A stretch of 64,000 nucleotides of DNA. Source: Escherichia coli (lineage in GTDB: Bacteria; Pseudomonadota; Gammaproteobacteria; Enterobacterales; Enterobacteriaceae). Shown here piece after piece: positions 48,330 through 51,919 of this stretch. The notes below the pieces were generated by a model. It did not search any database. It was not told the origin of the DNA and worked only from the letters and a program-made list of their open reading frames with translations. The position numbers were made by a program, and so were the translations under genes. The DNA lies in NCBI RefSeq assembly GCF_003018235.1, contig NZ_CP027438.1. The stretch is one strand, 5' to 3'. Each line of letters starts with the position of its first letter. The first letter of the stretch is position 1.

Positions 48330-49139
48330 TTATTGACTAAATAAATCCATATATTTTTTAGGCGTTATGTTAAAGTTTCTTTTAAATACAGTAATAAAGT
48401 AAGAATAATTATCATAACCACACATTTGTGATATTCTCTGCACTGAAGCCCTTTTCTGTCGCAAGAATTTAGCTGCCGCGTTCATTCTTGCTGACAAGCA
48501 AATCTCCGAGAAGGTTGTATTTTCATATTGTAACTTTCTTTTTAGCGATGATGGACTAAAATATAGGTATTTAGCCATATCTTCAAGTGACCATTTTTTA
48601 TCCAAGCTATTATATACAATATTGTATACTTTCTCCTTAAGAGTTGCCTCTGATGAACTTCTGATCACATAAGGTAATGAATTATTGGTAATAAAATGTG
48701 AAAGAATATAATAGAATGAATAAATAATATCAGCTGAATGGAGGTCATTAAGCCTCTCTTGAGGTATATTTCCTACTTTACTCAAGATACTATTATCATA
48801 TGCTATGTCAACGGCTTTTATGACCCATTCATTTGCATTATCTGAAGTTCTTGCTTTACCTGTTTCTGATTTTATATCGTCAAATCCTTCGCAGAATTTT
48901 TTTAAAACATAAGATGGTACAGGAATCAGTGAAAAAACAGGTTTTTCTTTTGATTTTACTGATGACAGACCTACCTTTATTCCTTTTTTTATAAAATAAA
49001 CACCCTCAGATATAGCATAGCAACATAAACTATCCATGTTGCATATAACAACGTTCCCTTGAGCCACATTAACTATAGTCGAATAGGCAACATAGTAGTT
49101 TTTAACCAAGTGTTTTTGTGTATGGGTATTTATATTCAT
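48330..49139 (-). CDS. AraC-family transcriptional regulator, second copy type
   Basis: 269 aa; C-terminal twin HTH (KKWSLEDMAKYLYFSPSSLKRKLQYENTTFSEICLSARMNAAAKFLRQKRASVQRISQMCGYDNYSYFITVFKRNFNITPKKY); distinct from the regulator at 82..870. Confidence 0.8.
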   Translation of the reverse strand: MNINTHTQKHLVKNYYVAYSTIVNVAQGNVVICNMDSLCCYAISEGVYFIKKGIKVGLSSVKSKEKPVFSLIPVPSYVLKKFCEGFDDIKSETGKARTSDNANEWVIKAVDIAYDNSILSKVGNIPQERLNDLHSADIIYSFYYILSHFITNNSLPYVIRSSSEATLKEKVYNIVYNSLDKKWSLEDMAKYLYFSPSSLKRKLQYENTTFSEICLSARMNAAAKFLRQKRASVQRISQMCGYDNYSYFITVFKRNFNITPKKYMDLFSQ

Positions 49140-50073
49140 TCCATATACCTTATTGATATTTTTTTATCATTATTTCACGTAGCGATAACTTTTTCATAAA
49201 ACATACCTAAACACAAAATAAAAAGAGCTATATTTAAAATTATAATATTCTTGTTAACTCTGAATTGCGTATTCAATAACTACATTATTCTTTCTGAGAG
49301 AAAAACAACATTTTTTCGGTTTGATGGTTATTACTATCATTATAAGGTAAGGCTATTTTTATAATGGCACTTCATTTATTTTATGGTTATTTTTAATAGG
49401 TTATCTACTGAAGATACCCCTTCCCCTCACACATAATAGGAACCTAGATAAAAAACCAGCAATAAACACCAGATTATCATGAACTGATTGATATGTTAAT
49501 ATCATAAATACACTAATGTCTACATTTAAATTTTTAATGCTTTTTTTTTGTGAATTTTTACTATTTATTTTTAGTGTGAAAATAAACATGATTTTATAAT
49601 AAAATTCTATGCTTAATCGATTATCTAACCAATATCAGAAATTTTTTTCGAATGATTACTAATGTGGAGCATCAAGCGTCCATTAATATTCGTTTTTTGT
49701 TTTTTTGTGTTTTGTGATGTTGGTCACATTTTTTATTTTATAACGTCCTGTCTGATACTGGGTCAAATCAACATATTAGATGACCTAGATAAGCATTTAT
49801 TCACGGATAGGGCCGCAGGCGTTTTTTAGTATTTCGTTCTCTCCGACAACGGTACCACATTTCGGTACATGTCATATGGACAATACGAAGCAAAAAAAGC
49901 AACTGAATTACGTAAGAATGGCTGGCTCACATTTGTCTCTCTGGAAAGGGGCTCTGAACACTCAATAAATGTTAATAACAGACCAATTAATCTTTATTGT
50001 AATGCATCGCATTGATGTGACTTTTTTTTTGTATAGAATATTATTTTCTTTGTTTTATAAGGATATATTTATT

Positions 50074-50481
50074 ATGAAGAAAAAAATTCAATATTTTCCG
50101 TTTGCTCTTCTAATTGGTCTGAGTTTCAACTCCTTTGCAGGTTCGCATCAGCAACCTTGGACCCCAAGTATTCAGCCCAAAGACTGTATTGGCTTGAATT
50201 TTATATCGGGACAGTTTACAGCAGATACCAATATGGGAACTTTGTTTTTTAAAAACAGCAAACCAGAGTGTAAGGAGGTTATTGATAAGGGCTATGCCAG
50301 CGGTGTACACGGTATCGTTAAAGGCGATGTTGACTTCGATAAGTGGGGACCAACCATAAATTACGGCCTTCTAAACAATAGATTCAGCTATTATGTTTAC
50401 CAGCATAGCCGTTACACGTTTCCAGCACCAATCAAGAAAGGAACTCAGCTTGAACTTGAATCTGCAGATTGGATTAGATGA
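50074..50481 (+). CDS. small secreted protein, dispersin/CexE-like candidate (paralogue 1)
   Basis: 135 aa; signal peptide MKKKIQYFPFALLIGLSFNSFA then Gly; two Cys; shares C-x-L...EC-x-x-I-x-GYA-x-GV-G pattern with ORF 51554..51919. Confidence 0.55.
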   Translation: MKKKIQYFPFALLIGLSFNSFAGSHQQPWTPSIQPKDCIGLNFISGQFTADTNMGTLFFKNSKPECKEVIDKGYASGVHGIVKGDVDFDKWGPTINYGLLNNRFSYYVYQHSRYTFPAPIKKGTQLELESADWIR

Positions 50482-50619
50482 TGCGAATAACGGCACTGAT
50501 CTTGTCTATCAGGAATTTTATTTAACATAATCTGTCTATATTATTACGTTTTCCTGTCAGATGGTTCTGGATATTTCAGGGGATCGCCTGACAGGTCATT
50601 CAGAACAACTAAACCGGTT

Positions 50620-51293
50620 ATGCAACTTCCGTGTAAGTTCACTGATTTTGAGCTAACCGACAGCAGAGACGCTGAACGGCTGGATCGATTTGCGCGAACG
50701 GCAGACGAGATACGCATTGCTGACCGGGGATTCGGTTCGCGTCCCGAATGTATCCGCTCACTTGCTTTTGGAGAAGCTGATTATATCGTCCGGGTTCACT
50801 GGCGAGGATTTCGCTGGTTAACTACAGAAGGAATGCGCTTTGACATGATGGGTTTTCTGCGCGGGCTGGATTGCGGTAAGAACGGTGAAACCACTGTAAT
50901 GATAGGCAATGCAGGTAATAAAAAAGCCGGAGTTCCCTTTCCGGCACGTCTCATTGCCGTATCACTTCCTCCCGAAAAAGCATTAATCAATAAAACCCGA
51001 CTGCTCAGCGAGAATCGTCGAAAAGGACGAGTAGTTCAGGCGGAAACGCCGGAAGCAGCGGGTCATTACCGGAAGATGAATATTCAGCAGAGCAAGTGGC
51101 TGATTGTTACCGTCTGCGATGGCAAATTGAACTGGCTTTTAAGCGGCTCAAAAGTTTGCTGCACCTGGATGCATTGCGTGCAAAGGAACCTGAACTCGCG
51201 AAAGCGTGGATATTTGCTAATCTACTCGCCGCATTTTTAATTGACGACATAATCCAGCCATCGATGGATTTTTCCCCCAGAAGCGCCTGATCC
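50620..51293 (+). pseudogene. IS4-family transposase remnant (frameshifted)
   Basis: ORFs 50620..51240 and 51096..51290 in different frames; second ends with the IS4-type C-terminal motif YRLRWQIELAFKRLKSLL. Confidence 0.65.
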
Positions 51294-51395
51294 GAAAAGA
51301 AAAACTAACTCGTTGTGGAGAATAACAAAAATGGTCATCTGGAGCTTACAGGTGGTCATTCGTGGGACAGTATCCCTGACAGCCTACAAAACGCA

Positions 51396-51440
51396 ATTGA
51401 AGAACGCGAGGCCTCGTTAAGACGATGCCTCGCGTTCTTC
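51396..51440. terminator. perfect 14-bp stem hairpin downstream of 51554..51919
   Basis: GAAGAACGCGAGGC-ctcgttaagacgat-GCCTCGCGTTCTTC. Confidence 0.4.
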
Positions 51441-51553
51441 AGATGGTTCACCCCTTAAGTTAGCGCTTATGCACTACATCCCCTCCTTATGACATGGTTG
51501 TTCGCTCATTTTCACTCATTAGTATTATAAATAAGATACGAATAAGTGTAACT

Positions 51554-51919
51554 TTAGTACCAGTAGGTTAATACATTACCAACACCATTTATTTTAGCCC
51601 CATCGGGTAAAACCTCAGGAATTCCTAATTGCGATGATGTAACTTTTTCTCCTGGAGAAACATGTCCGACAAAGGTCTTCCAGTTAGTTGATTGATAACC
51701 TTTACCGTATGACACTTCCCCACTAAAACCAACGCCTTTTGCGTACCCTTGGTTTATATAATTACGACACTCAGTTTTGTCATTCCATGAAATGGTGAAG
51801 GGATTATAAGATAATACTATGCAGTTTCTGGCATTAACTACTGACGTCTGGGATTGGCTTCCTGCAAACGCGGAAACGCTTAACAACATTAACGATACAC
51901 TGAAGATCAACTTTTTCAT
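51554..51919 (-). CDS. small secreted protein, dispersin/CexE-like candidate (paralogue 2)
   Basis: 121 aa; signal peptide MKKLIFSVSLMLLSVSAFA then Gly; two Cys; paralogous to 50074..50481. Confidence 0.55.
   Translation of the reverse strand: MKKLIFSVSLMLLSVSAFAGSQSQTSVVNARNCIVLSYNPFTISWNDKTECRNYINQGYAKGVGFSGEVSYGKGYQSTNWKTFVGHVSPGEKVTSSQLGIPEVLPDGAKINGVGNVLTYWY

Follow-up and report, generated by a model that had tools for sequence, protein, structure and literature searches.

Are the two small secreted proteins encoded near an AraC-type regulator gene on plasmid NZ_CP027438.1 of Escherichia coli 2012C-4221 (assembly GCF_003018235.1) members of the family of dispersin (Aap) and CexE, and does the same DNA encode the Aat machinery that would acylate and export them? 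We analyzed a stretch of 64,000 nucleotides of this plasmid, hereafter the window, for which a sequence-only reading had made this call from architecture. Sequence profiles, the Pfam family PF28204 on close homologues and the predicted fold all support the call. We put at roughly 85% the probability that both open reading frames (ORFs), here called cargo135 and cargo121, encode glycine-acylated surface lipoproteins of the Aap (dispersin)/CexE family that follow the route from Sec through signal peptidase I and AatD to AatPABC. Membership in the family, by sequence and predicted fold, and the intactness of the machinery genes are established here.

This identification is correct but not new, both exact sequences having been catalogued in 2021. 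Proteins WP_158709095.1 and WP_158709096.1, which a script check found to match the window translations of the two genes exactly, appear in the homologue FASTA, mature-sequence and alignment supplements of Icke et al. (2021 eLife, PMC7943197). A table row of the same paper assigns WP_158709095.1 and five Aat proteins to plasmid NZ_CP027438.1, and its main text makes no mention of systems with more than one cargo. Because the proteins were already in the published Aap/CexE catalogue, the biological novelty is small. What the analysis offers is a functional assignment for two genes still annotated in RefSeq as 'hypothetical protein', and an example of a correct functional call, as Aat glycine-lipoprotein cargo, that is possible from raw sequence architecture alone. 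Two modest additions are possibly of interest for the study of Aat and of coat-protein vaccine antigens in enterotoxigenic and enteroaggregative E. coli (ETEC and EAEC), namely the recurrence of a module of two cargo genes with an AraC gene and the fast amino acid change in cargo135 between near-identical plasmid backgrounds.

Two precursors with a predicted N-terminal glycine

Cargo135 (50074..50481, plus strand) encodes a family precursor of 135 amino acids identical to WP_158709095.1, and cargo121 (51554..51919, minus strand) one of 121 amino acids identical to WP_158709096.1; the ORF listing bears out the convergent, tail-to-tail arrangement that had been described. The frame of cargo135 is also open further upstream, giving a longer ORF from 49969, and we set its start at 50074 because the MKKK start is common to all homologues and to WP_158709095.1.

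The signal peptide of cargo135 occupies codons 1-22 (50074..50139, plus strand; MKKKIQYFPFALLIGLSFNSFA) and leaves a mature protein of 113 residues starting GSHQQPW, and that of cargo121 occupies codons 1-19 (51919..51863, minus strand; MKKLIFSVSLMLLSVSAFA) and leaves 102 residues starting GSQSQTS. In both, the predicted cleavage is before GS, with small residues at −3 and −1 and glycine at +1. The published SignalP results for the identical sequences give Sec/SPI at 0.975 for both and place cleavage at 22-23, SFA-GS, with a probability of 0.864 (WP_158709095.1) and at 19-20, AFA-GS, with a probability of 0.821 (WP_158709096.1) (PMC7943197, supplement). The −3/−1 rule and SignalP thus agree with the claim that SFA and AFA precede an exposed N-terminal glycine, and nothing places the cleavage elsewhere.

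Each mature protein has exactly two cysteines, as had been noted. The first lies at mature position 16 in one protein and 14 in the other, the +1 residue being glycine, so that neither has a lipobox ([LVI][ASTVI][GAS]C with cysteine at +1). The isoelectric points of the two proteins are 8.0 and 8.6. Cargo135 and cargo121 are 36% identical over 90 amino acids (BLASTP, E 7e-10), and cargo135 carries an extra loop and an insertion between its two cysteines. The block of shared residues reported from the letters alone is real, but three residues, not two, separate the cysteine from the isoleucine, and the trailing glycine is out of register; the corrected motif is EC-x-x-x-I-x-(K/Q)-GYA-x-GV. Likewise, the two proteins are indeed homologous but only distant paralogues, as the comparison of their subfamilies indicates.

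Family membership and predicted fold

Sequence searches of the PDB gave marginal results with both phmmer and a hidden Markov model (HMM), with E 0.67 for dispersin (2JVU) and 0.095-0.16 for CexE. An unrelated glucosidase outranked both through a match to the signal peptide, and we therefore turned to profile-profile and fold comparison. When each cargo subfamily was compared with 20 known Aap/CexE members by hhalign, the full-length profiles matched with 99.5% probability for cargo135 (E 4e-23) and 99.3% for cargo121 (E 2e-20). Without the signal peptides, the matches persisted at 98.3% (E 1.4e-14) and 98.1% (E 8.6e-14), respectively. The mature subfamilies match each other at E 1e-6, and for each of them the match to the general Aap/CexE profile is the closer one. 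Given this difference from the E values of about 1e-14 to the family, the two genes represent two old lineages and not a recent duplication.

The profile search against the family that had been proposed as a check also finds both ORFs. An HMM built only from known Aap/CexE members and run against the six-frame translation of the whole window matches cargo135 and cargo121, with E 5.7e-19 and 1.3e-20, and no other ORF. These are therefore the only candidate cargo for the Aat system of the window. In addition, the family PF28204, 'Dispersin', is precomputed on a homologue 98% identical to cargo121 and on one 69% identical to cargo135, as well as on proteins named dispersin Aap and on the Citrobacter rodentium and Yersinia enterocolitica homologues. 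An alignment of both cargo proteins with Aap (pO86A1), CexE-like proteins of ETEC plasmids and further relatives shows these columns to be invariant: the glycine that begins the mature protein, both cysteines, the two glycines of GYAxGV and the C-terminal tryptophan (beyond the glycine at +1, C38, C66, G73, G77 and W133 in cargo135). The column of the +1 glycine is invariant in alignments of 13, 20 and 34 sequences.

The AlphaFold2 models of the mature proteins are of good confidence, with pLDDT of 84.6 for cargo135 and 89.7 for cargo121. In Foldseek searches of the PDB, the first match of the cargo135 model is CexE (9HHO; probability 1.00, template modeling (TM) scores 0.58/0.60) and the second is dispersin (2JVU), whereas the first match of the cargo121 model is dispersin (2JVU; E 8e-4, probability 1.00, TM 0.58/0.60). 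Overall, 9HHO and 2JVU are the top matches of the predicted models, with probabilities of 0.93-1.00 and TM scores of 0.47-0.60. The comparison with the dispersin fold that the sequence-only reading had called for thus finds these two structures to be the best PDB matches for both proteins, and both models are predicted to share the beta-sandwich fold of dispersin and CexE.

These results bear on the possibility that the likeness to dispersin is a matter of chance and that the two genes encode small secreted proteins of an unrelated kind, for example a fimbrial subunit, an enterotoxin or a classical cysteine lipoprotein. Scans of both proteins against local copies of Pfam-A and NCBIfam returned no match, and the phmmer comparison with the PDB was marginal, as noted above. 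However, the null result in the family databases is not evidence against membership because PF28204 is newer than the Pfam copy scanned. The evidence from profiles, HMM and fold is strong and consistent and already refutes chance likeness; moreover, there is no cysteine at +1 and hence no lipobox, and we found neither a match to a toxin or fimbrial family nor homology to fimbrial subunits or toxins. We give this explanation virtually no credence.

Aat machinery and the proposed route

The window encodes all five Aat proteins. The aatD gene (1225..2445, plus strand, start approximate) specifies an Lnt-like N-acyltransferase of about 406 amino acids; the reading frame is open from 979 onward, and translation probably begins at Met83, position 1225. 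The ORF 979..2445 has no Pfam or NCBIfam match and was identified by tblastn only, at 28-30% identity to genes annotated as aatD or 'acyltransferase' (E down to 7e-29). Its residues E292, K354, E362 and C401 (ORF numbering) align with the catalytic residues of the EAEC and ETEC AatD proteins, and each of these E, K, E and C residues is required for acylation (Icke et al. 2021, PMC7943197). The remaining genes, all on the plus strand and all full length, are, with identities to the proteins of the EAEC O104:H4 pAA plasmid, aatP (5765..6892; permease, 41%), aatA (6889..8100; TolC-like outer-membrane channel, 29%), aatB (7988..8836; periplasmic adaptor, 39%) and aatC (8820..9458; ATP-binding cassette (ABC) ATPase, 60%). 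A copy of insertion sequence (IS) IS100 follows aatC at 10081..11882. By its gene content, the window holds a complete but divergent Aat system, with aatPABC and a separate aatD. The aatD gene, the cargo genes and aatPABC all lie more than 1 kb apart, an arrangement catalogued in PMC7943197.

Published experiments on CexE suggest what these components may do. CexE is cut by signal peptidase I, exposing a glycine, and its mature N-terminus was sequenced; AatD N-acylates this glycine. The N-terminal glycine is necessary for acylation by AatD, and its replacement with glutamate (G21E) lowers or abolishes acylation of CexE and abolishes its secretion. By homology, the cargo precursors would cross the inner membrane by the Sec pathway, and signal peptidase I is predicted, from the published SignalP results and the alignment with CexE, to cut after SFA or AFA and leave glycine as residue 1. 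The AatD of the window, with E, K, E and C intact, would then N-acylate Gly1, and AatPABC (5765..9458) would move the acylated beta-sandwich protein to the surface, where it may form a coat.

Conceivably, only one of the two proteins is Aat cargo, the other having diverged in role or export, remaining in the periplasm or leaving by another secretion system. Their identity of only 36%, the fact that each matches the family profile better than its partner, the insertion between the cysteines and the further loop of cargo135, and the very different rates at which the two genes evolve (see below) would all fit such a divergence. Nevertheless, both proteins have the +1 glycine and the predicted beta-sandwich, a fold that the title of the 9HHO entry ties to secretion. 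In addition, a single N-terminal glycine after the CexE signal peptide is, according to published work, enough for acylation of a foreign protein, and at least six other plasmids carry two family members. We consider it quite unlikely that only one of the two is exported by Aat, and favor the assignment of both as cargo.

Regulators and promoters

Two AraC-family genes accompany this system. AraC#2 (48330..49139, minus strand) encodes a 269-amino-acid AraC/XylS-family regulator and is divergent from cargo135. In NCBIfam it comes closest to HilD, though below the cutoff, and its identity to VirF and AggR is 24-30%. The intergenic region between AraC#2 and cargo135 (49140..50073) is AT-rich, with about 29-30% GC, and measures 934 bp, in agreement with the AraC gene that had been placed some 930 bp away across AT-rich DNA. 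AraC#1 (82..870, minus strand), with 262 amino acids, is of the Rns/CfaD/VirF/AggR type (33-41% identical) and divergent from aatD; this pair matches the association with AraC proteins described for the AatD family (PMC7478709). Control by AraC proteins is proposed because AraC#2 is adjacent to and syntenic with cargo genes and AraC#1 lies beside aatD, and AraC-family activators probably drive expression.

Generic scans for sigma-70 promoters and terminators found nothing above chance. Sigma-70-like hexamer pairs occur at 50012..50039 and 50017..50044, just 5' of cargo135, in numbers not above chance. We also looked for AggR/Rns-type promoters, defined as WWWWWWWTATC with a −10 element 21-23 bp further on, in the 600 bp preceding each of the two cargo genes, the two AraC genes, aatP and aatD; this yielded one distant site against 0.2-0.4 expected, which is not above chance.

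Distribution and recurrence of the module

The locus is rare, being found in 1 of 72,556 plasmids and 1 of 5,426 complete E. coli genomes. The sole carrier in these plasmid and complete-genome sets is strain O158:H23 CFIAFB20140388, at 99.3% identity. An IS4-family fragment (IS421/IS186B-like) lies between the cargo genes, at approximately 50632..51499 on the plus strand (about 870 bp, 94-96% identity), so that the IS4-family remnant reported between the paralogues is indeed present. The order AraC#2, cargo135, IS4 remnant, cargo121 was found again in two other assemblies, AraC#2 with cargo135 in a third, and cargo121 with cargo135 in a fourth. AraC#2 is syntenic with cargo135 at loci L012, L013 and L019, and at L013 the same IS4 remnant lies between the two cargo genes.

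The presence of two family loci on one plasmid is not unique either, with at least six other plasmids showing it, in some of which the second locus is beside a second aatD-like gene. On the Aap-carrying plasmid NZ_AP022262.1 (L010, 4001..6112), a second dispersin-family gene adjoins a second aatD-like acyltransferase gene, so that strains other than this one can have the pair of cargo and acyltransferase genes in duplicate. Elsewhere, a complete aatPABCD-like operon is followed, 850 bp downstream, by a relative of cargo121 with 46% identity.

The closest relative plasmid is NZ_CP076711.1, whose cargo region is 99.3% identical to that of the window in DNA. Between its positions 20291..29658 and window positions 82..9458, protein identity in the region of aatD and AraC#1 drops to about 79%; the match to aatD is broken into three pieces, and the annotated AatB-like gene is short. 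The Aat system of NZ_CP076711.1 may be decayed, and these plasmids are mosaic. The O158:H23 strain also has a second, chromosomal copy of cargo135 (NZ_CP076709.1, L009, 6647..7603) followed by the same IS4 remnant. The island in which this copy lies also encodes a Zot-domain protein, a GspD secretin and an SLT transglycosylase.

Selection on the cargo genes

Among distant alleles, with about one synonymous substitution per site (dS about 1), the ratio of nonsynonymous to synonymous rates (omega) is 0.10-0.25 for both cargo genes. Both genes have therefore been maintained by long-term purifying selection. Close alleles of cargo135 (dS 0.1-0.2) have omega of 0.8-0.9, and AraC#2, compared between the window and L019 (dS about 0.15), has omega of 0.19. 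Between the window and L012 (6001..6411), cargo135 differs by 23 nonsynonymous changes and 1 synonymous change, with omega about 6; a hand binomial estimate puts the neutrality p value for this comparison at roughly 0.01-0.04. Taking L012 together with L009 (6647..7054), both with near-identical flanks, the counts are 22-23 nonsynonymous and 1 synonymous. The genes flanking cargo135, AraC#2 and cargo121, show about 98% protein identity between the window and L012, and about half of the changes in cargo135 fall between the two cysteines. This pattern suggests that cargo135 is under diversifying selection as an exposed coat protein, although relaxed constraint in that clade could also account for the excess. 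A diversity-generating retroelement as the source of the variability was rejected, the substitutions not being adenine-specific.

Several observations weigh against the assignment of both genes as functional Aat cargo. Besides the null scans against Pfam-A and NCBIfam and for AggR/Rns-type promoters, the second mature residue of both proteins is serine and not glycine, and extra glycines raised the efficiency of acylation in published work; a GS start is common among the listed family members. The identity of the Aat proteins of the window to their counterparts in the systems studied so far is no more than 27-60%, and AatD homologues have been found to complement one another partially or not at all. 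Finally, the Shine-Dalgarno sequence of cargo121 is weak or distant, and frameshifted or truncated alleles occur in other strains (P0010, P0007).

The last two points also fit a different account, in which family membership is correct but the genes, lying in a part of the plasmid riddled with IS elements, survive as silent or decaying remnants that have ceased to serve as functional cargo. Consistent with decay are also the IS4 remnant between the cargo genes and the IS elements around the aat genes, the broken aatD region of NZ_CP076711.1, and the omega of about 0.8-6 among close alleles of cargo135, if this reflects relaxed constraint. However, both ORFs are intact and keep all family-invariant residues, the low omega at dS about 1 applies to both genes, the module is syntenic across strains, and in the window AatPABCD are full length and the catalytic residues of AatD are intact. 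We therefore regard decay as unlikely and retain the assignment of cargo135 and cargo121 as Aat cargo.

A more tentative proposal is that AraC#2, cargo135 and cargo121 constitute a self-contained mobile cassette that supplies two structurally distinct coat proteins to one Aat machine, with cargo135 being a variable surface antigen shaped by diversifying selection and with a HilD-like regulator of its own, independent of a master regulator of the Rns/AggR type. We think it possible, but rather doubtful, that all these elements hold together.

Comparison with known systems

The cargo proteins resemble dispersin (Aap of EAEC; 2JVU, PF28204) in that they are small and predicted to be Sec-exported, with a mature form that would start with glycine, and in the two conserved cysteines, the G..G core, the C-terminal tryptophan and the beta-sandwich; dispersin is the top structural match of cargo121. 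It is also encoded on a virulence plasmid and accompanied by aat genes and an AraC-family regulator. However, the identity of the mature proteins to dispersin is only about 19-34%, they start GS where Aap has GGSGW, and their core is GYAxGV, as in CexE, instead of the GKVRGV of Aap. Their net charge is lower, with isoelectric points below the 9.0-9.4 of dispersin, and cargo135 contains insertions and exceeds dispersin in length by about 19 residues.

CexE (ETEC; 9HHO; with homologues in C. rodentium and Yersinia) shares with them the GYAxGV core and the +1 glycine after an A-x-A-type site, and is the top structural match of cargo135. The combination of aatPABC with a separately located aatD, the genes being split as in ETEC, is a further likeness. 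In contrast, the identity to CexE is about 25-30%, the Aat components are divergent to the extent given above, and the two divergent cargo genes of the window are neighbors and have a HilD-like AraC gene to themselves, a regulator that is not Rns/CfaD. With classical lipoproteins, which depend on Lgt, Lsp, Lnt and Lol, there is a common element in N-acylation by an acyltransferase of the C-N hydrolase family, AatD being an Lnt homologue. Unlike those proteins, the cargo proteins have no lipobox or cysteine at +1, and their proposed pathway involves cleavage by signal peptidase I, a single acyl group on glycine, and export through a TolC-like channel and an ABC transporter instead of Lol.

Other features of the window

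On the minus strand, 22442..25866 encodes a peptidase-containing ABC exporter of 714 amino acids (best match a bacteriocin export transporter, E 4e-108) and an adjoining HlyD-family adaptor of 427 amino acids, with small unannotated ORFs upstream at 26245..26820 and 27066..27515. Together, the exporter and the adaptor look like a microcin or bacteriocin export pair. At the end of the window, 61294..64000 is a low-GC block of hypothetical genes with a counterpart in NZ_CP076711.1 (30909..34895). That counterpart extends into genes for a lytic transglycosylase and an A24 prepilin peptidase, pointing to a type IV pilus operon that continues beyond the end of the window.

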